IMG/VR virus record: IMGVR_UViG_3300011269_000004
Coordinates: 1-55,328 of that record
DNA: 55,328 nucleotides
Reading direction: 5' to 3' (one strand)
Source: a virus
Taxonomy: Duplodnaviria > Caudoviricetes
In this document: piece by piece, positions 1,580 through 55,328 of the stretch
Layout of the letters: each line of letters opens with the position of its first letter
Numbering within the stretch: position 1 is the stretch's first letter
Position numbers and translations under genes: made by a program
Notes under the pieces: generated by a model
Told to the model about the DNA's origin: nothing
What the model saw: the letters and a program-made list of their open reading frames with translations, nothing else
Database searches by the model: none

Positions 1580-1893
1580 ACCGCACGCCTATCAAATCGT
1601 CCAGCAACATCCTCTCAGCGGGATACGATGAGGGCACGCGCACGCTTGAGTTAGAATTCCCATCGCTCGCTGTCTACCAGTATTATCAGGTTCCTCCGTC
1701 AATTTACGCGGCCTTCCAAGCCGCAGGTTCCAAAGGGAAATTTCACGCGCTGTACTTGGCTGGCAAGTACGAGTACAAGTGCGTAGTCCAGCGACCGCAA
1801 GGAGAAAAGAGTCATGGCGAAAGCAAAACCGAAGTCCAGAGCAAGAGTGTCGCACGGCGCATCGCAGCACAAACCAAAAAGTCCATCTCCTAG
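1576..1893 (+). CDS. KTSC domain protein
   Basis: SSNILSAGYD..TRTLELEF....YQYYQVP..Y..F..AGSKGKF signature; GTG start overlapping previous stop. Confidence 0.9.
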   Translation: MNRTPIKSSSNILSAGYDEGTRTLELEFPSLAVYQYYQVPPSIYAAFQAAGSKGKFHALYLAGKYEYKCVVQRPQGEKSHGESKTEVQSKSVARRIAAQTKKSIS

Positions 1894-3211
1894 TCACGCG
1901 CTTATCAAGCCTGATGTGCTCTCGATTCCCGAAGCGATCGAGAAGGTTTTGATTCAAGGCGACTTGTCGCCGCTCCAGCCGCAAGAGCGTATCGATTATT
2001 ACAAGCGAGTCTGTTCCTCGCTTGGCTTGAACCCGCTCACGATGCCGTTCTCTTACATCCTGTTCCGCGAGAGCGATGGCGCGCCGGCCAAACTCTCGCT
2101 GTATGCCAACAAATCCTGTACGGAACAGTTGCGCAAGATTCACGGTGTCTCGGTTATCCCTCCGCTACGCCGGAGCCGCAATGAGGACATCGTGACGGTC
2201 GAGGCGGATGTGCGCGACCGTTTTGGACGTACCGACTCCGCAAGTGGAAGCGTGCCGCTATTCAGGTTCAAAGATGCCAAGCGATACGAACTTACCGGCC
2301 GCGACTTGTGCAACGCGGAGATGAAGTGCGAGACGAAAGCCAAGCGGCGCGCAACTCTCTCGATCTGCGGGTTGGCGTTCCTAGACGAGAGCGAACTGGA
2401 CACCATGCAGGTACTGGGTGGCGTTACGCCTGACGGCCGAATCTTTCGCTACGCTGGCGAGGAACCAGTACCCCCATCGCGCCAATTGAACGAGAACGCT
2501 GCGCATGGTCATCCAGAAGGCTCAGAACGCGCAAAGCAGGCCGACGCAGCCATAAAGAGGGTCGAGCCGGCAGATAAGGCTATAGAGGTCGAGAAAACCT
2601 CGCCAGCCGTCCCTAAAGCGCAACCTGTGCCACCCATGGAGTTCAAGGGTAATGTGGAGATTGACTGCACGGTGCCTTGGCCGATAGTCCGCGGCGACCT
2701 GCAGGACATAATCGAGAACCTACAGAAACTCTTTGGCGCAGCGCTCGAGTGGGGACAAGACTCATGGTGGCACATCGCTCCGAAGCAGGTAAGCGAATTT
2801 GTTGACTTGTTGAGCAAGAACGGATTCAAGGTGGATGTCAAGATCAAGACGCCATCCAAGAATTCTGCCGGTCAGAAGTCTGCCATGACATCTCCGCCGG
2901 CAGAAGCTCCTGTCGTCATCAGCGGGACCGTTGAACGCGTTGTACCTGACGTGAAATATGCAGTCATTACGCTTGCCACAAAGGACGGCAAGAAGCCGAG
3001 TTGGAAGTGTTTCGACAAGGACATCTCCGAGATTCTGCGGAAAAACCTTGGCAAGTTGGCCGAAGTCATCCTACAAAGCCGCGTCTCGAAAGGTGTCACG
3101 TACACAAATCTCATTGGCTTGAAGAACGTCGCTGGCCAAGAGTACGAAGATTTGAAAGTTCCAGTCATCGAGCGCAAGGACCAACAAGCTGGAGCCAAAA
3201 CGCTTTTCTGA
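1814..3211 (+). CDS. RecT/Red-beta-like single-strand annealing protein with C-terminal extension
   Basis: GDLSPL...YY..VC.SLGLNPLT.PF and MKCETKAKRRATLSICG motifs; Pro-rich linker; possible C-terminal OB-like domain. Confidence 0.75.
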   Translation: MAKAKPKSRARVSHGASQHKPKSPSPSHALIKPDVLSIPEAIEKVLIQGDLSPLQPQERIDYYKRVCSSLGLNPLTMPFSYILFRESDGAPAKLSLYANKSCTEQLRKIHGVSVIPPLRRSRNEDIVTVEADVRDRFGRTDSASGSVPLFRFKDAKRYELTGRDLCNAEMKCETKAKRRATLSICGLAFLDESELDTMQVLGGVTPDGRIFRYAGEEPVPPSRQLNENAAHGHPEGSERAKQADAAIKRVEPADKAIEVEKTSPAVPKAQPVPPMEFKGNVEIDCTVPWPIVRGDLQDIIENLQKLFGAALEWGQDSWWHIAPKQVSEFVDLLSKNGFKVDVKIKTPSKNSAGQKSAMTSPPAEAPVVISGTVERVVPDVKYAVITLATKDGKKPSWKCFDKDISEILRKNLGKLAEVILQSRVSKGVTYTNLIGLKNVAGQEYEDLKVPVIERKDQQAGAKTLF

Positions 3212-3376
3212 GGTAAGGCGCTGTAAGGCCCGCTGTTCTATGGTCAGGCAAGTTAGGTTGAGGTCGGCTGAGTTGCGGTGGGTCGGAGTCGGGTACGGTC
3301 TGTCTTGTTTAGGCTTGGTTAGTTCCGGCATGTTTGTGTTTGGCAGTCCAAGGCGTCCCATGGCGCGGCGAGGTTA
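3212..3376 (+). repeat. Array 1 of 5-nt GGY-NN units (33 units), putative guide-like ncRNA
   Basis: Unbroken 5-nt register; 33/33 units have a pyrimidine at position 3, 27/33 G at position 1, 17/33 exact GGY; fills the intergenic gap. Confidence 0.85.
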
Positions 3377-3397
3377 AATTTAGGGAGAAAAAACGAA

Positions 3398-4011
3398 ATG
3401 AGCAAAACAGCAACAGCACTTGCAGAAGTTTCAAACGACGGAGCCTTTGCCGTCGAATCAGCAATCCCCTATATCGTTGACGTTCAAGTGGAAGGGGCGG
3501 CGGCATTCCTCTTCCATCGCTGGAGCGTTGACGGTGTAGAAGCGAAGTCAAAGCTGCAAAGGGCAGTAAGGCCAAGAAGGAAGATGATTTGGAATCCTAT
3601 GTCTACCGCGACAAAGAAGGATTACTTTGTATTCCTACTGAGTATTTCCGCATGTCTCTCATCAACGCCGCGAAGTACAAGCAAGACCCCCGCTCTCCGC
3701 GTAAGTCTGCAATGGATTTGTTCAAAGCTGGAATCGTTGGCATGACAGATCTATGCTGTTTGGGAATCCGCGAATGGGAGTACGTTGATCGGCGCCGTGT
3801 GATGATTCAACGGAACGGCATCACTCGCCATCGGCCAGCCCTCTATGCAGGATGGAGAGTGGCAATGAGTTTCCAAGTTCTCATTCCAGAATACATTTCT
3901 CCGCAACTCTTGAACGAAACAATTCAGAGTGCAGGGCGATTGGTCGGCGTTGGAGATTTCCGTCCGACGTTTGGCAGGTTCAATGTCGTAAAGTTTTCCT
4001 TGGCAGGATAA
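3398..4011 (+). CDS. Solo RAMP/Cas7-like protein (~204 aa), split by a 1-nt frameshift near 3550
   Basis: Joins track ORFs 3398..3745 and 3589..4011; beta1 IVDVQVEGAAAFLFH, GLLCIPTEYFRMSL helix motif, C-terminal G-loop AGRLVGVGDFRPTFGRF. Confidence 0.75.
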
Positions 4012-4173
4012 GGCCCGCCAAGTTGCGGAGAGGTCGGTTGCGGCAGGGTTCGGTTAGGTTGGGCAAGGTCTGCAAAGGCAAAGCATGGTTTGGTTCGGTA
4101 GCGGTTGGACTCGCCTGTATTGGGCGGAGTTGGGTGTGGCATCGGCACGCTGAGAATACGGACTGCTAGTCCG
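4012..4173 (+). repeat. Array 2 of 5-nt GGY-NN units with 3' hairpin, putative guide-like ncRNA
   Basis: 18 in-register units 4012-4101 (12 exact GGY), about 10 more after +1 slips at 4102 and 4143; hairpin CGGACT-GCT-AGTCCG at 4159-4173. Confidence 0.85.
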
Positions 4174-4197
4174 AGGCGCGATGAGTTAAGGTGAGGT

Positions 4198-4455
4198 ATG
4201 GATTCATTATCTGAAGAGGAGAAGGCCACTTTTAAAAGAGCCACGGAGCGGCGCCGTGAGAACGGCATACGGCTCAAGCGTATTACGCTCTTGGCTCAAC
4301 CTTCGCAAGTAGAGGGCTTTACGGAGCTTTTCGATTCGTGGGTAATCCGCTGGGGCAAGAGCCGTGCACTGGACGAGCTTATACGCATTATGTCGATTGT
4401 CGAAGCGAGAATACGAGACAAGGAAAATGCACCGCCGCCCAACAAGAAAGGATGA
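4198..4455 (+). CDS. Hypothetical protein
   Basis: AAGGTGAGG RBS; helical protein-like sequence. Confidence 0.6.
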   Translation: MDSLSEEEKATFKRATERRRENGIRLKRITLLAQPSQVEGFTELFDSWVIRWGKSRALDELIRIMSIVEARIRDKENAPPPNKKG

Positions 4456-4780
4456 AGCAGCCACGAAAGCGGCCGGATTCAAGAGTCGCTATTCATATGT
4501 CTCGACGCGCGTTCATCCTGACTCAGATCCGCCGTACCAATGCGTTTATCTCGCTGGTCCTGACGATGTGTGGAAGCGACGGCGAGAGGTTTTTGAGCGC
4601 GACGGATTCAAGTGTGTACTGTGCGGGAGCACGCGCAACCTACAACTTCGGCATGGCGGAAAGACGAAAGTAGAGCGTTGCTGGTGCATGGAGAATCTTT
4701 CTTGCCGCTGTTCGGAGTGCCACATGATCAAGGAACACGGAAGATTCCCAAGGTGGTCCGCGAAGCGGAGCCAGCCATGA
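4427..4780 (+). CDS. HNH endonuclease-like protein
   Basis: W..RR.VFERDGFKCVLCG....L...H......NL...C..CH pattern. Confidence 0.75.
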   Translation: MHRRPTRKDEAATKAAGFKSRYSYVSTRVHPDSDPPYQCVYLAGPDDVWKRRREVFERDGFKCVLCGSTRNLQLRHGGKTKVERCWCMENLSCRCSECHMIKEHGRFPRWSAKRSQP

Positions 4781-5145
4781 ACGACAATTACCGTGAAACT
4801 CTGGAAGAACGAACAGCGCGAATCAATAGAGACGGGGCCAAGCTGAAAGCAGAGTTCCGCATTCGGCTTGAGCGACTGGAACACGAGCACGTACTAAAGT
4901 TGCTCGATTTGTTTCAAGAGTTCAAAAGACGGTCGGAACTGGTCGCCAACAATCACAGAGCCAAAAGCGACACTCTCGACATGCTGCACAATACGCTGAA
5001 TGTGAAGGCGCATGAGTTTTCTCCAGTTCACGCTGGAGAGAATGGGGTGGCTAGCACTTCTGGACAAAGTGCGGGGACCGGCCACCCCAACGTAATCTCG
5101 CGCAACCCGGAAGGAAACTATAAGCAGGCGGCAGAGAGGAAGTGA
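4777..5145 (+). CDS. Hypothetical coiled-coil protein
   Basis: ATGA and GTGA overlaps at both ends. Confidence 0.55.
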   Translation: MNDNYRETLEERTARINRDGAKLKAEFRIRLERLEHEHVLKLLDLFQEFKRRSELVANNHRAKSDTLDMLHNTLNVKAHEFSPVHAGENGVASTSGQSAGTGHPNVISRNPEGNYKQAAERK

Positions 5146-5686: not shown

Positions 5687-6855
5687 CCCCAACCGAGCAG
5701 CGAGCAGGCAAGAGCACCAGAACCGTAGCCGACGTTATCGCTGAATGGCGAGCGTCTGGCGTCAACAATGACGACGGGGAGTTAGCGAGCCGAATCAACT
5801 ATTTCATTGCGACGGAGACGAAAGGCTGGCGGGGAACCGGGGGCTTACAGGAGCGAGTGAAGCAATGGCGCGGCATTGCGCGGCGTGTCGATTCGCCGCT
5901 GTTCAATGCGTACAGCCAATGCGCCGACGAACTAGAGGCCGACATCGCGGAGATGGGGGTGGGCGTGAGCAACGTCGGCATTCTATCGCTGCTGAATGAG
6001 CATTGGCTGTTTGGAATAGAATGCAACCACGAAGCGAAAACAGACCAATCAATTTGTTCTTGTGGACTGAAATCACCGGAACGGGAGAGCGTAGGAGCGG
6101 CTGTTCAAGATTGGATTAAGCATTTGCGCACGCTGGCAGTCACCGCACCATCCTCCGAGCAGCAGCCCCACGTTGCCACGCTGGAAGAAATAAGTTGCGC
6201 AGATGCCGCTGAAATAGTACGCGAGGCCGCTGTCCCTGCATCGGTACCTTTGGACGCGGCGGCTGTACCCTTTTCGGTTGCTGTGAAATTAGACCAAATG
6301 GCGAGGCGTACGACGATTCTTGCTATGGAACTAGCTTACAAGTGCCTGAAATCCTTCACGATTCAATCTACGCATCCAGAAGCCAACCGTGTACGCGATA
6401 TTTGTTACACACTATTGGGCGTTAAGTACCACCGAGCAGAACCAGACGAAAGTGGAGAATGGATGCGTCTTGGTGTACCTGTGCCCGTCGAAACGCCATC
6501 GGTGGAGAGGGTGCCGCGCGCGGACATTCCGCGAGACAAAGCCCATGCCATTGTGCGGATGTGGCTTGAACTGGAGGGCGGAACTCCGCAAGAGCAGCGA
6601 GACAGGCTCGTGGAGGACATCGCGGATGCACTGCGGGCAGCCTCCGACCGCGAGCGCGTGCTGCGGGAGGTCGCAAGTAACGTCCCCGACCCAGAAGTTG
6701 GAGGCTTCTGCGATTCATGCGGTGGAAGGCTAGAGCTAATTGAGACACAGCGTCACGGCATGAAGGCATTTATTTGGCAGCACAAAGAAACATGCTGGTA
6801 TGGGAAATTACAGACGGCGCTCGCCCTCGATGCTGTGAAGGAACAACCTAAATGA
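5683..6855 (+). CDS. Hypothetical mosaic protein
   Basis: 390-aa ORF coupled at both ends; several Cys/His clusters. Confidence 0.65.
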   Translation: MTPTEQRAGKSTRTVADVIAEWRASGVNNDDGELASRINYFIATETKGWRGTGGLQERVKQWRGIARRVDSPLFNAYSQCADELEADIAEMGVGVSNVGILSLLNEHWLFGIECNHEAKTDQSICSCGLKSPERESVGAAVQDWIKHLRTLAVTAPSSEQQPHVATLEEISCADAAEIVREAAVPASVPLDAAAVPFSVAVKLDQMARRTTILAMELAYKCLKSFTIQSTHPEANRVRDICYTLLGVKYHRAEPDESGEWMRLGVPVPVETPSVERVPRADIPRDKAHAIVRMWLELEGGTPQEQRDRLVEDIADALRAASDRERVLREVASNVPDPEVGGFCDSCGGRLELIETQRHGMKAFIWQHKETCWYGKLQTALALDAVKEQPK

Positions 6856-7319
6856 ATCTCACCGCCGCTGAGTTGACGCATTTTTGGGAGAAAGTGGATA
6901 AGAATGGCCCAATTCCAGAGACCAATCCAAAATTAGGAGCCTGTTGGCTTTGGAATGGCAAAATTGACCGCTACGGTTATGGCAAATTCAGCGTAAAAAG
7001 AAAGATGGAGTCAGCCCACCGAGTCGCATATCAGGTCACCGTGGGGCCGATTGCTAAAGGGTTGACCGCTGACCATCTTTGCCGAGTTCGTAGGTGCATC
7101 CGTCCCAGTCACATAGAACCTGTCACGAACAGAGAAAACGTCTTGCGTGGCGATACTTTCCCGGCGAGACAGTTGGCGCAAACCCATTGTGTCAATGGGC
7201 ACGAATTCAACGAGGCCAACACATATCATTGGAATGGACATCGCGGGTGCCGAACATGCAAGCGGTTATATTGGAGACGGAAACATCCGCCCGCGCTAGA
7301 AAAAGAGGATGGAAAGTGA
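6852..7319 (+). CDS. HNH endonuclease (His-Cys box / HNH_3 type)
   Basis: CWLW.G....GYG.F......AHRVAY, DHLC..R.C..P.H.E.VT..EN, THC.NGH motifs. Confidence 0.9.
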   Translation: MNLTAAELTHFWEKVDKNGPIPETNPKLGACWLWNGKIDRYGYGKFSVKRKMESAHRVAYQVTVGPIAKGLTADHLCRVRRCIRPSHIEPVTNRENVLRGDTFPARQLAQTHCVNGHEFNEANTYHWNGHRGCRTCKRLYWRRKHPPALEKEDGK

Positions 7320-11602: not shown

Positions 11603-11784
11603 AGCACTGGCACATCCAGCTACGCGGCGAGACAGTCGGGACGCTTTCCTGTCCGCAGTGTCTCCCTGACTCGCTTGATTACGTCTTGCGCACTGAGGAA
11701 GGTAAGCTCATCGGAATTTTTACTGGTGCTCCGGGCCTTGTAATAGTAGAGTCTGAATCTCAGCCAAAAGAGGAGGCAATTTGA
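11599..11784 (+). CDS. Hypothetical protein
   Basis: TTGA overlaps on both sides. Confidence 0.45.
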   Translation: MKHWHIQLRGETVGTLSCPQCLPDSLDYVLRTEEGKLIGIFTGAPGLVIVESESQPKEEAI

Positions 11785-40112: not shown

Positions 40113-40340
40113 TTATAGTACCGCTTGCTGTCTAGAGGGGTCTGAACGGAATGTACGATATTCTGAGTGCGGCACGCCAATAATCCAGTGGCCGGTGGCA
40201 TCTTTTTTGATTTTGTAGCCTAATTCGAGAGCGTAACCGCTTGCGCACCAGCGGCGCAAGGTGAGTGAACTTCGGTTGTACTCCCGCGCGACAGTCGAGA
40301 GCGGCACCCAAACTATTTCACCGTCAGGTTGAGGTTTCAA
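40113..40340 (-). CDS. HTH DNA-binding protein (MerR/excisionase-like)
   Basis: PLSTVAREYNRSSLTLRRWC.SG...GHW.I. Confidence 0.7.
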   Translation of the reverse strand: MKPQPDGEIVWVPLSTVAREYNRSSLTLRRWCASGYALELGYKIKKDATGHWIIGVPHSEYRTFRSDPSRQQAVL

Positions 40341-40807
40341 GAATTGGCTCTCCCGGCTGGAATCGAACCAACATCAGCCTCCGTCGAGGCCCGCGACCCC
40401 TCAGTTAGAACTGAGTGCTCTGCCACTGAGCTACGGGAGAATGTCGTTTCGTTGCAGGCGCATTTCCACGGCCTTAAAACTTTCAGCACACGCGACTGAT
40501 TCTTTTCAATCGGGTAGGTAGCAATCGCTGTTAAATGTTCTCCGTTAATAATCCGGTCTGTGTCCCGGTACTCGACGAACATCACACATTCGTTCGTCAG
40601 GTCTTGACATAATTTTTCAAGTTCCAGCTTTCCCGCAACGGAAAGAATAATGATGTCTTTGTCCTGCACATCCACTTGCGGCAAGAGGCGCTGGAGTTTT
40701 GCTACAACGTGAACAGCGTGAGAAGCGATTCGTCCTGAAGTCATGCACAGTTTGCGGTCGGACAAGTCAAGATTACGCAACACAACGACATAAATACGTT
40801 CAGTCAT
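40337..40807 (-). CDS. Peptidyl-tRNA hydrolase Pth2-like protein
   Basis: IYVVV...L....MT.GRIASHAVH, IIILSV....L..L, E..D....LTAIA..P motifs. Confidence 0.7.
   Translation of the reverse strand: MTERIYVVVLRNLDLSDRKLCMTSGRIASHAVHVVAKLQRLLPQVDVQDKDIIILSVAGKLELEKLCQDLTNECVMFVEYRDTDRIINGEHLTAIATYPIEKNQSRVLKVLRPWKCACNETTFSRSSVAEHSVLTEGSRASTEADVGSIPAGRANS
40345..40440 (-). tRNA. Atypical tRNA-like element (6-nt anticodon loop containing CUA; enlarged variable region)
   Basis: TCTCCCG/CGGGAGA acceptor stem, G-CCA end, GCTC-AGTGGCA-GAGC D arm, GTTGG-TTCGATT-CCAGC T arm. Confidence 0.7.
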
Positions 40808-43242: not shown

Positions 43243-45003
43243 TCAAATCCTTCCTAATACCGAGTGCTGTTTCATTCGGTTGGGCCGCATGATGAATGCC
43301 AAATCTCGTTTCAGCGCGTCGTGCAAGGTGGCTTGAGGCTTGAGCGCCGCTTCTATCGAGGCCTGACGCGATTCTTTGGTCTCCAGATAGTTCGCCTTGT
43401 AGTTGGCGATGTTCGGCGGAGGATACTGCGCGCAGGCGATGACAGCAAGCAAAGCGGCAAACAAAATATCATCATGGCCGTGCTCGATCTCCCATCGCCC
43501 GCCGATTCCCATCGTGGCCATGTCCATCTGCCGGAGGAGTTCTTCGTCCTTGACTTCCAGCCCGCCGGGAACATTCTTCATGCCCTCGCGGAGTTTACCA
43601 CGGAAAGTGGAATAGAGCAGATCGCGGGTGCGCGCGGTTGTTTCCCATCCGAGAGAATGCCGCTTGCCTTTTCCGTAGGTGGCATCATCCTTGCCGCGCC
43701 ACACGTAGAGGTTCGGGTAGTAGTAAGTGTCGCGCATCAACTTCTGCGCCCACAGGCCGAGGTTCCCGGTCAACTCGATGTTGACCATCGCGTTGTTGTA
43801 CCAGCGCCCCACTTTATCGAGGTCGTCGGCAATCACTTCAGGATTAACCCAGTCAGAGAAGCGCGCAACAAACTTTCCGGTGGTGCCGTTGAGCACGTAG
43901 TAGGCTGCGAAGTCTCCGGTGGCGAGTCCAGTATCCGCTTCGAGTCCTCGCGCGCAGTCCGCGCCGACGTAATACCAGCACTTGTCGCGCGGCTTTTCCC
44001 AAACGAGCAGTTTGCCCTTGCTGTTCTCGACCAGCATCGGCTTGTCGCCGGAGCGTTCAAGATGTCCTGTGACGATAGGAGCCTTGATGGTCTTTCGCGC
44101 GTACTGCAATTCTTGCGCGTTGAAAGCGGGGTCGCCGGTAGCGACGAAGGCTACAGTAGGAGTCCACGGGTATTCCTGCGAGAATTTCGCTTCGCTTCCG
44201 TCGCACTCGCCTTCAAGCACCAAGCGCATCCACGCTATCTGACCGCGCGTGGCGTTGAATGGCTTCTTCATCAACTCGCGTTCTAGGTCCGATGCTGGCG
44301 CGTCCGAGGCTTCCGATGCCAACCGTTTACAGGCGGGGTCATCTAGCCACGAGAGGAAGATAGGCGTATATCCGTTCCAGTCTTTTCCCTTCTTGTTAGC
44401 TCGGTTCCAGAATTCGTAGAATGTTTGACCGATACCCACACGCCCGAAGGCAGTAGACTCAAGAGCGATGATAGTATCCGGCGCCTTCGAGACTGCGGGT
44501 AAAATTCCGAGGAATGAATCTGACCCAGGATATTGAGCAGCTTCCGACAAATGTAACGCTGTAAGGGTGAGTCCTCGCCCTCCGCCAACGGAGCCGGCGG
44601 TCGCAATATCAAGTCGAGAGTCTCCGTCTTGATGATGAAAGATAAGGTCACGTGTACGAACTTCGCAGCATTCGGCTTTGATGTTGAGAGCTTCTCCGAG
44701 GTCGCGTGGGACACGGAACAATCCCTTCTCTGATACTTCTTTCAGGTGCGCCACGATTTCCGCGTGCGCTTGTACACGAGCGAGACAGTGGCAAAACAAA
44801 AGCGCGTCCATGAACGATGACATGCCTACCCTACGTGCTTTCAAAATCAGGACGCGGATCCATTTGCTTAATTCGTAGGCTTGTTTAATAGCGTCAAACG
44901 CTTTAACTTGATTAGGATTTAAAATAAAAGGCACAGAAACATTCAAGTCTCTGTCTTTCACTGGCAGTTTAGCTAATAGCCTGCGCGCTCGGTCAAGATT
45001 CAT
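43243..45003 (-). CDS. terL: Terminase large subunit
   Basis: LNPNQ Q-motif, LKARRVGMSS Walker A, LHLSEAA Walker B, ESTA motif III, GADCARG..D and HDD nuclease motifs. Confidence 0.95.
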   Translation of the reverse strand: MNLDRARRLLAKLPVKDRDLNVSVPFILNPNQVKAFDAIKQAYELSKWIRVLILKARRVGMSSFMDALLFCHCLARVQAHAEIVAHLKEVSEKGLFRVPRDLGEALNIKAECCEVRTRDLIFHHQDGDSRLDIATAGSVGGGRGLTLTALHLSEAAQYPGSDSFLGILPAVSKAPDTIIALESTAFGRVGIGQTFYEFWNRANKKGKDWNGYTPIFLSWLDDPACKRLASEASDAPASDLERELMKKPFNATRGQIAWMRLVLEGECDGSEAKFSQEYPWTPTVAFVATGDPAFNAQELQYARKTIKAPIVTGHLERSGDKPMLVENSKGKLLVWEKPRDKCWYYVGADCARGLEADTGLATGDFAAYYVLNGTTGKFVARFSDWVNPEVIADDLDKVGRWYNNAMVNIELTGNLGLWAQKLMRDTYYYPNLYVWRGKDDATYGKGKRHSLGWETTARTRDLLYSTFRGKLREGMKNVPGGLEVKDEELLRQMDMATMGIGGRWEIEHGHDDILFAALLAVIACAQYPPPNIANYKANYLETKESRQASIEAALKPQATLHDALKRDLAFIMRPNRMKQHSVLGRI

Positions 45004-45733
45004 TGGCGCGTCTCTTCCCCCAAGACTTGCGTGATGCCTGCGCGGCGAGTTCTCTCTGTTCAGGTTTCGCCCAACGACGCAGTTGCGCCTGCCGCTTGCG
45101 CTCTAATGTTTCTGGATTATCTTTCATTCCTGTACGCGATGGGTTTCCTATTCGCATTGCGCTGAGTTTAGCGCAAGTTTCTGGAGACATTTTCTGGCCG
45201 CGATTCCATGCAACCCTTCCTCTGTTGACTTTAAGCGCCTTTTCATAAGCGTGCGGAGGAGGCTTTATTCCATTTCGTTTCAATCCTTCACTAATTGCCT
45301 TCCGCGCTTTTTCTGAGAACGGGCCGCGTGGTCCGGTTTTTATTCCTTTACGGGCCACACTAAGGGCAATGCGCTGGCTTTCTGGCATTCGAATCCCACG
45401 CCTGCACTTTCCCCAACCATCTATGCCGCCTTCTGAAGTATTTGTTAGTGGCACTCCGCTCTGTCGGAAGAAATTAATCCACCACTTTTCGTAGGTTCCC
45501 CAAGCAGAGAGAAAAACCCATTCAAGAACTGACAATCGAGGTTTCTTGCATTGGTCGTGCAATCGACGTAGCCAACGACATACGTGGGTGTTATATCCGT
45601 TGGATTTCTTACAGATAGAATCTTTCAGATGAGTTCGATAGCGTCTGCGCAAATCTGAGGTCTTTCCTACGTAGCGACACACACCAGTATCAGGATCGCA
45701 GAGCGCGTAGATAAACACGCGGCATGGTATCAT
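44993..45733 (-). CDS. GIY-YIG homing endonuclease with NUMOD3-like repeats
   Basis: FIYAL.DP....RYVGKT....R...H, E..WI, LTN...GG, AWNRG.KMS.ET..K.S. Confidence 0.85.
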   Translation of the reverse strand: MIPCRVFIYALCDPDTGVCRYVGKTSDLRRRYRTHLKDSICKKSNGYNTHVCRWLRRLHDQCKKPRLSVLEWVFLSAWGTYEKWWINFFRQSGVPLTNTSEGGIDGWGKCRRGIRMPESQRIALSVARKGIKTGPRGPFSEKARKAISEGLKRNGIKPPPHAYEKALKVNRGRVAWNRGQKMSPETCAKLSAMRIGNPSRTGMKDNPETLERKRQAQLRRWAKPEQRELAAQASRKSWGKRRANES

Positions 45734-49647: not shown

Positions 49648-49808
49648 ACGCCGACGTAATCGAAGCGAACTTGGAAGGGGTGCTGCCCGCGTTCCTCTAC
49701 GGCGCGACATTGCTGGAGATGGGCTTCAAGTTGACTAGCGAAGGCGAGTGGATTGTGCGGTCTGAATTGTATTGCTTGACGCCCCACGGAGTTTGGAAAG
49801 TTGAGTGA
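49644..49808 (+). CDS. Small hypothetical protein (54 aa, not in ORF track)
   Basis: ATGA and GTGA overlaps. Confidence 0.5.
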   Translation: MNADVIEANLEGVLPAFLYGATLLEMGFKLTSEGEWIVRSELYCLTPHGVWKVE

Positions 49809-50050
49809 GTATCCTTCTCATCCAAGCGGATGCCCGCAGTATCCCCCTCGCTGACAAATCCATCCATTGCTGCGTGTGCAGCCCTCCTTACTGGGGTTTA
49901 CGAGATTACGGAGTTGCTGGACAACTAGGACTGGAGAAAACGCCCGAGGAATACATCTCCGCGATGGTGGCAGTTTTCCGCGAAGTGAAGCGGGTGCTGC
50001 GGGACGACGCAACCTGCTGGATTAATATGGGCGACTTCCGCCCAAGCTAG
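49805..50050 (+). pseudogene. Truncated beta-class N4C/N6A DNA methyltransferase
   Basis: SPPYWGLRDY catalytic motif and VFREV.RVL.DD.T.W.N.GD, then stop; no FxGxG SAM motif follows. Confidence 0.8.
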
Positions 50051-55076: not shown

Positions 55077-55328
55077 ATGGCAACGTGGATTGAAGATAAA
55101 AATGGAAATCGCTGTTCGGTGGAACGATGGGGTTCGCACGAGTCCGCACAAAAAGTGCTGGCTAGTCTTGTAGGCTGCTCCGACTGCTCCGACTGCTCCG
55201 GCTGCTCCCGCTGCTCCGGCTGCTCCGACTGCTCCCGCTGCTCCGACTGCTCCCGCTGCTCCGACTGCTCCGGCTGCTCCCGCTGCTCCCGCTGCTCCGG
55301 CTGCTCCGGCTGCTCCCGCTGCTCCGAC
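55077..55328 (+). CDS. 5' part of CSx-repeat protein (continues at nt 39 across the join)
   Basis: AAGGA RBS; MATWIEDKNGNRCSVERWGS...GCSDCSDCSG...; no stop before the end. Confidence 0.85.
   Translation, partial: MATWIEDKNGNRCSVERWGSHESAQKVLASLVGCSDCSDCSGCSRCSGCSDCSRCSDCSRCSDCSGCSRCSRCSGCSGCSRCSD
55176..55328 (+). repeat. 17 x 9-bp tandem repeat TGCTCC(GAC/GGC/CGC)
   Basis: Direct reading: 153 nt = 17 units. Confidence 0.95.

Follow-up and report, generated by a model that had tools for sequence, protein, structure and literature searches.

The Viral Interference Programmable Repeat (VIPR) was described in 2026 in three bioRxiv preprints (10.64898/2026.04.26.720920, 10.64898/2026.04.26.720927, 10.64898/2026.10.15.759431). 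The protein component, Vipr, is a minimal RAMP that occurs mostly in phages and proviruses (10.64898/2026.04.26.720920). The guide, termed vrRNA, consists of 9–16 YNNGG repeats and a tail, and each repeat is occupied by one Vipr protomer. Pairing with DNA is through the NN bases and leaves out every third base of the target, and this binding silences the transcription of competing satellites and prophages (10.64898/2026.04.26.720920, 10.64898/2026.04.26.720927). Seven VIPR types are distinguished, including 'staggered', ribozyme-punctuated and single-guide forms, and degeneracy of the repeats is called frequent (10.64898/2026.04.26.720920). In the type II VIPR of the Escherichia phage SUSP1 (PDB 36pp), which comprises Vipr, vap1 and four vrRNAs, residues H17 and D177 hold G1 of the repeat, R138 and W178 hold G2, and R179 holds Y3 (10.64898/2026.04.26.720927). 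Here we analyse a related locus in IMG/VR virus record IMGVR_UViG_3300011269_000004, a stretch of 55,328 nucleotides from a tailed phage that is referred to below, at its full length, as the window. The locus is very probably a VIPR locus of the known kind, in which the reading frame of vipr is broken in the sequence as recorded.

The gene and its flanking arrays all lie on the + strand, inside a + strand block of early genes. Their main elements are the following.

3212–3376, + strand: upstream vrRNA-type array, 33 GGY-NN units in one unbroken register, 17 of 33 strict GGY
3398–3553, + strand: first piece of vipr, codons 1–52 in frame A, containing the strand with H40
3553–3554, + strand: deletion site, one G missing; the gene goes on in the -1 frame
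3553–4011, + strand: second piece of vipr, codons 53–204 and the stop codon in frame B, containing R146-P147 (thumb hairpin) and the G-loop
4012–4101, + strand: downstream array 1, 18 GGY-NN units of which 12 are strict, beginning directly after the vipr stop codon
4103–4142, + strand: downstream array 2, 8 weaker units (4 of 8 strict GGY) after a register shift of +1 caused by an extra C at 4102

The upstream tract, which starts one base past the stop codon (3209–3211) of the preceding gene, takes up the whole space between that stop codon and the vipr ribosome-binding site; 21 nt separate its end from the start codon of vipr. Pooled, the 59 units of the window have the composition G84% / G66% / Y95% / N / N; strict GGY is present in 33 of them, and the remainder are mostly GYY or KGT. 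The GGY-phase score is 80/99 for the upstream and 59/78 for the downstream flank. Shuffles that preserve dinucleotides, 2000 in number, averaged 46.9 and 38.0 and never exceeded 58 and 50, so that none of them reached the observed values (z = 12 and 8.5). When period-5 autocorrelation was computed over the whole window with a 120-nt sliding frame, the top 18 positions all fell in the two flanks, with an excess of up to 0.198; the best position outside them, at 11731, gave 0.138. Across both strands of the full 55,328 bases, a caller for GGYNN arrays detected no others. A TRAP-like triplet-reading RNA-binding protein, which had been considered as a candidate reader of such period-5 tracts, was dropped after the homology to Vipr was found.

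Neither piece of vipr matches a Pfam family, and the second matches phrog_4652, of unknown function (E 3e-14). Homologues of about 200 aa are abundant: 6982 proteins reach E ≤ 1e-3 in a collection clustered at 90%, the best being P0001, an intact protein of 204 aa with 97% identity. Among clusters formed at 50% identity, 1222 reach E ≤ 1e-3 and 105 reach E ≤ 1e-30, and identity is 70–86% among the best 120 of the 6982 homologues. The uncultured soil-phage clade to which this gene belongs is thus very large, and the degree of its conservation is unusual. A phmmer search with P0001 alone found PDB chain 36pp_D, 'SUSP1 Vipr protein', at E 7.7e-6 over query residues 128–198, in an alignment that pairs the G-loop GVGDFRPTFGRF with GVGDWRPRFGRF. 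With a profile of 65 sequences the match improves to E 6.2e-18 and covers nearly the full length (profile positions 32–206, chain residues 5–190). In this alignment H17 and D177 of SUSP1 Vipr correspond to H40 and D187, R138 and W178 to R146 and F188, and R179 to R189. Residues D187, R189 and R146 are conserved at 90% or more in the 65 sequences. All five residues (H40, R146, D187, F188 and R189) are encoded in the two pieces of the window gene, and the G-loop is encoded at 3946–3981.

The structure that was modelled is that of the intact relative P0001, not of the broken window gene. The AlphaFold2 model has a predicted local distance difference test score (pLDDT) of 94.5 and a predicted template-modelling score (pTM) of 0.87. 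It is predicted to adopt a minimal RAMP fold, in which a single RRM core bears a thumb hairpin as well as a glycine-rich loop; the hairpin, residues 129–149, carries R146-P147, aligned to the SUSP1 thumb residue R138. The top Foldseek matches of the model are Csm3, type VII Cas7 and Cas7-11 (E 7e-7, template-modelling (TM) score 0.5–0.56), and a structural search against 48,161 representative chains placed Cmr/Csm3-type RAMP chains at ranks 1–5 (Z 11.0–11.8). Both structure libraries seem to be without a Vipr entry, and the direct link to Vipr therefore comes from the sequence alignments. The predicted structure is shared with the Cas7 backbone subunits of CRISPR effectors (Csm3, Cmr4, type VII Cas7), which have the same fold (Z 10–11.8, TM 0.5–0.56), G-loop and thumb hairpin, whereas sequence identity to them is only 9–15%. 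Unlike the loci of class 1 CRISPR effectors, the window has no CRISPR array, Cas5, Cas6, Cas10 or Cas1: PADLOC reported Cas models in 0 of the 68 phage open reading frames (ORFs), and no CRISPR-like repeat is present among the 11 direct-repeat families of the phage genome. The guide would also differ, being noncontiguous with a periodicity of 5 nt, as compared with 6 nt in the guides of class 1 CRISPR effectors.

The arrays accompany the gene in other genomes. Nineteen related loci (L003–L021) were collected, comprising the GenBank phage DSL-LC04, 16 IMG/VR contigs, and one contig each from an Acidobacteriota and a Dormibacterota metagenome-assembled genome; two pairs appear to be duplicates (L007 = L008, L019 = L021). 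A period-5 zone lies beside the gene in all 19, upstream, downstream or on both sides. Away from the gene only three zones were seen, all weak (0.14–0.16), in L011, L014 and the window itself. The 853 pooled units of the relatives have the composition G91/G76/Y92/N/N, matching that of the window, and strict GGY makes up 60% of units in L004, 57% in L007 and 49% in L014, all of which have an intact gene. One-base register shifts between neighbouring arrays, as at 4101/4103 in the window, occur also in L004, L012 and L019. Homologues of 11 genes neighbouring the window vipr were sought in the related loci and none was found, which suggests that gene and arrays are carried along together. L019 has, by a wide margin, the largest array set sampled; in it, as in L021, about 118 well-formed GGC/GGT-NN units lie upstream of vipr on the opposite strand (L019 3335–3926, - strand); a further 36 units follow downstream of vipr on its own strand.

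An earlier note on this DNA, made from the letters alone, had described GGY-NN pentamers in both flanks of a frameshifted RAMP-like gene with a G-loop, with no similar array elsewhere in the genome and no cas genes or CRISPR array, and each of these observations is borne out above. Two checks that it had proposed, a Foldseek comparison with Cas7, Csm3 and Cmr4 and a test of homologues' flanks for period 5, gave a RAMP fold in the P0001 model and the zones in 19 of 19 loci. It had also suggested that the class was known as VIPR and that this instance was new, and the homology to SUSP1 Vipr and the 2026 preprints agree with that.

Of the systems described in the preprints, that of SUSP1 can be compared most closely. 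Both loci are phage-borne and encode a minimal RAMP of about 200 aa with the G-loop GVGD[F/W]RP.FGRF; both proteins have H, R and D-aromatic-R residues for GGY, and both genes have GGY-NN arrays on either side, with no cas genes and no CRISPR array. The window differs in that the sequence similarity is distant, F replaces W178, the protein has an N-terminal extension of about 23 residues, no conserved vap1-like neighbour is present, vipr is frameshifted, and the habitat is soil. The arrays differ as well, with 33 and 18+8 units and no pseudoknot tails in the window as compared with 9–16 repeats and a tail in SUSP1. In the latter respect the window resembles the staggered or other non-type-II arrays (10.64898/2026.04.26.720920, figure legends S17–S19), which form long head-to-tail tracts without large tails and with one-base register shifts. 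VIPR-null phages and satellites with solo vrRNAs (10.64898/2026.10.15.759431) resemble it in another way, their guides being usable only with the Vipr of another element, as those of the window would be. In those published cases vipr–vap1 was lost by a 1,114-bp deletion and 1–2 vrRNAs were kept, whereas in the window the gene is present with a single-base deletion, together with 59 units. Every defining feature of VIPR that could be tested was found in the window except an intact reading frame.

The break in the frame lies at 3553/3554. Frame A encodes 52 residues like those of the relatives and is then out of frame, while frame B is open from 3532; the relatives' protein reads ...GVEAKSKAAKGSKAKK... 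across this site, and the window DNA has tcA AAG CTG where relatives have AAR-GCN (Lys-Ala). In a tblastn search of the window, P0001 matched with residues 1–60 at E 7.5e-29 and with residues 49–204 at E 2.6e-102. Against this intact 204-aa relative the two pieces show 85% and 96% identity, and no lesion other than the deletion was seen. The frame is intact at the deletion site in all 17 relatives matched by motif. Over 3100–4300, contigs from four of four soil runs (three studies) are identical to the window, with 0 differences and 0 gaps, and the deletion is therefore probably real in this phage population. Three of the four runs are possibly the record's own source, and two of these gave contigs of equal length; the contig of the fourth run, which is not marked as a possible source, spans 3214–3659 at a depth of 3.7. 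Contig depth across the runs is 3.7–10, and a co-existing intact allele may go unseen in contigs of this kind. The deletion looks recent, since it is the sole lesion in pieces that remain 85% and 96% identical to the intact relative, and since the arrays are in no worse shape than in relatives with an intact gene. It is somewhat more probable than otherwise that the deletion at 3553/3554 is both real and inactivating, and the phage as sequenced most likely makes little or no full-length Vipr.

Two other accounts of the deletion were weighed. The system may be fully working, if the deletion arose in sequencing or assembly or belongs to a minority allele that the assemblers happened to choose. 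The good state of the two pieces and of the arrays, which are no more degenerate than those of the intact loci L004, L007 and L014, would be expected under this account, and contigs do drop rare variants, especially at the depths given above and with three of the four runs possibly being the record's source. However, separately assembled contigs from four of four runs agree without a difference, one of them from the run not marked as a source, and the deletion site is a GG dinucleotide rather than a long homopolymer; we regard this account as unlikely. Alternatively, full-length Vipr might be made in spite of the deletion by -1 slippage, in which the Lys-tRNA would move from AAG (3551–3553) to AAA (3550–3552) and translation would continue with GCU, as an accidental rescue or as a control of dosage. 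The sequence tcA AAG CUG permits perfect re-pairing, its product would be the conserved ...EAKSKAAKGSK..., and A-AAG is shift-prone in bacteria. Slippage is, however, no trait of the family, as 17 of 17 relatives compared use one frame. The site is not a canonical heptamer, and the 72 nt downstream fold at the level of shuffles (z -0.6), with only a 4-bp hairpin near the site. Vipr is moreover needed stoichiometrically, with one protomer per repeat (10.64898/2026.04.26.720927), and low-level slippage would be insufficient. This makes slippage improbable, and a recent, real inactivation is preferred over both an artefact or minority allele and slippage.

In two of the three window arrays, no stretch of 8 units matches the NN positions of a relative's array any better than shuffled guides do, indicating that the NN positions are hypervariable between relatives. 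The third, at 4012–4101, is an exception: its units 7–14 match units 21–28 of the upstream array of L004 at 15 of 16 NN positions and at 16 of 24 scaffold positions, a level of 15 NN matches that 0 of 200 shuffled guides reached (maximum 13). In units 8–14 the NN positions are identical to the L004 block, and the 5 differences within these 7 fully shared units are confined to the scaffold, an outcome with a chance of about 0.06 if differences are random over the 35 bases. This fits with the window phage and the L004 phage keeping the same guide; common descent of a short segment is the alternative. A 7-NN block conserved in two otherwise different arrays, with the scaffold diverged, is a small piece of natural evidence for selection on the NN code. 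A second such block was seen between L016 (320–369) and L017 (3722–3771), which have a common guide block of 9 units with 14 of 16 NN matches per 8-unit window and differing scaffold bases.

Targets were sought under a rule of 1-nt skips; in the published work, natural targets are called at an NN match of at least 80%. The scans of sequence collections need exact seeds of 9–11 units, and would miss mismatched targets. At the 80% threshold no self-target is present in the phage's own genome, where the best match is 23/32 at 3161 against a shuffled-guide maximum of 21. The VIPR systems studied in print are likewise described as having no self-target (10.64898/2026.04.26.720920). In 122 kb of related loci no target rose above the null, no predicted target was found in the relatives' vipr genes or arrays, and the guides read as degenerate peptides matched 270 Vipr proteins at null level. 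Exact-seed scans of viral contigs gave 0 matches in four cases, 1 in a further scan and 6 in another, the 6 agreeing at only 3–7/18 positions outside the seed. Two scans of genome contigs gave 0 matches, and metagenome contigs gave 12, with agreement at 2–8/18 positions outside the seed. The shared-core seed gave 14 viral matches and at least 120 genome matches, the best extension being 8/18 among the genome matches listed.

Two candidates from these searches were rejected. In an unrelated IMG/VR contig (L022, 10534–10559, - strand), units 5–15 of the upstream array match at 21/22 NN within a 183-aa ORF beside tail-fibre genes; it was set aside as chance, as about 1 chance match is expected by a rough estimate of collection size, the skip falls on codon position 2, and the ORF is unrelated; a real target of 11 units is the alternative. 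The other is one near-identical sequence matching the shared-core seed in five viral loci (L042, L047, L050, L053, L054) and two metagenome loci (L026, L030), the source of L026 being a human-gut metagenome assembly. Four of these (L042, L047, L053, L054) match at 26/32 NN over units 3–18. This sequence was also rejected as chance, since the skip falls on codon position 1, the habitat is unlike that of a soil phage, and the extension is 7–9/18.

Several observations weigh against the assignment of the locus to VIPR, or against its being an active one. Because of the broken frame, the protein component may be lacking altogether, and the support for the deletion itself is only partly independent, given that three runs may be the record's source and two of them gave contigs of equal length. 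Among the relatives the share of strict GGY spans 49–100%, and the window arrays fall near the bottom of this span; the upstream tract of 33 units exceeds the 9–16 repeats reported per vrRNA. No structured tail was found between the upstream tract and the ribosome-binding site of vipr. A scan of the + strand around the arrays yielded neither a sigma-70-like promoter nor a terminator, and no conserved vap accessory gene was seen beside vipr in the related loci sampled. No RNA runs carrying the region are listed, and no convincing target under the 1-nt-skip rule was found in any collection scanned with exact seeds. The lack of promoter- and terminator-like sites on the + strand suggests that the arrays would be co-transcribed with the early operon and processed later.

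Some of these points would also fit pentamer tracts that are not guides but binding sites of another sort, for instance a regulatory leader or trailer where binding of the RAMP would repress the mRNA that encodes it, much as ring- or filament-forming attenuator proteins bind RNA through spaced triplets. The upstream tract abuts the vipr ribosome-binding site and has no tail, and the NN code has not led to a target in the scans made. On the other hand, the protein retains the GGY-holding residues known from the solved guide complex, and the NN positions are hypervariable between relatives save in the shared blocks, where they are kept better than the scaffold. The relatives' arrays, moreover, lie upstream, downstream or on the opposite strand, a poor fit to a fixed mRNA leader. 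Taken together, these make the non-guide account highly improbable, the least probable of those considered. It is also improbable, though imaginable, that the soil-phage clade (1222 clusters) represents a distinct VIPR architecture. Such an architecture would have no accessory gene and would use untailed guide tracts, of up to at least 33 units, as leader and trailer of the vipr message, with one-base shifts or 6-bp hairpins between them; guides would be exchanged as NN blocks, and -1 slippage at A-AAG would here provide a regulated supply of Vipr.

Membership of the family, the fold, the layout of the arrays, their association with the gene across relatives and the deletion are shown by the results above. 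For the VIPR locus with a recently inactivated gene, the reading that we prefer, we infer RNA binding, the DNA-silencing mechanism and the functional state of this copy by analogy with the solved SUSP1 system. By homology one Vipr protomer would bind each pentamer and hold its GGY through H40, D187, F188, R146 and R189. The NN dinucleotides, left exposed, would base-pair with double-stranded DNA, every third target base being skipped, and the resulting filament would then silence the transcription of a competing mobile element. The earlier note had arrived at much the same scheme, in which each RAMP subunit binds one pentamer through the constant triplet and the dinucleotides spell a gapped target, and this equals the published VIPR mechanism as it would apply here. 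With vipr broken, the arrays would now either be recent remnants or supply guides to the Vipr that a co-infecting relative makes.

Beyond the last array the locus has two further features.

4159–4173, + strand: small hairpin CGGACU-GCU-AGUCCG, 6 bp with a 3-nt loop, 3' of the downstream arrays
4198–4455, + strand: 85-aa ORF after the arrays, with no Pfam or PHROG family

The arrays fold no better than their shuffles (z +0.5 and +1.7). No structured or pseudoknot tail was found on them, the sole structure being the 6-bp hairpin past the last array, which is a candidate for a short 3' tail or the end of the last guide; similar GGACUC hairpins lie between arrays in the relative L014. A search of 2800–4800 against Rfam families, hammerhead included, gave nothing above chance.

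The vipr gene sits between a 465-aa gene (1814–3211, function unknown) and the 85-aa ORF. The language-model features of the latter resemble RHH_1 clusters (score 0.92, a lead only), a weak lead towards a predicted ribbon-helix-helix DNA-binding protein; it is a possible accessory gene, and it has no homologue in the related loci. In L003 (3426–3869) and L017 (4591–4935) a gene for a lysine-rich protein (147 and 114 aa) has its start at or inside the stop codon of vipr, and is possibly an accessory gene of a subclade that is absent from the window. One HNH or homing endonuclease gene lies directly 3' of the VIPR locus and one adjoins the large terminase gene; such genes were seen at 4364–4780, 6852–7319 and 44993–45733.

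The source record, of 55,328 bp, is classed as 100% complete with direct terminal repeats. It is identified as a tailed phage by PHROG matches to major head, portal, large terminase, endolysin and clamp-loader proteins, and soil metagenome runs contain its DNA. Both ends of the record (1–57 and 55165–55328) consist of a 9-nt tandem repeat (GCTGCTCCG-like), which at the left end encodes (Cys-Ser-Gly)n at the start of an open-ended ORF (3–401). The call of direct terminal repeats and completeness may therefore reflect a coding tandem repeat rather than true genome ends. An 81-aa ORF at 49805–50050, followed by minus-strand ORFs, contains SPPY and aligns with type II DNA methyltransferase models (E 7e-26) over no more than their first ~80 positions; it looks like the remnant of a truncated methyltransferase, a second damaged gene in this phage genome. 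ARAGORN reported a 96-nt 'tRNA-???' with a four-base anticodon (tcta) at 40345–40440 (- strand), within ORF 40337–40807, which is probably a false call.

RNA-guided DNA recognition by VIPR has been described only recently, and the system has been proposed as the ancestor of the CRISPR RAMPs. The copy analysed here extends the VIPR family to a clade of uncultured soil phages and leaves the known picture unchanged. Its one-base lesion in vipr, next to arrays that are still in good shape, may represent an early stage on the way to the published 'solo guide' phages.

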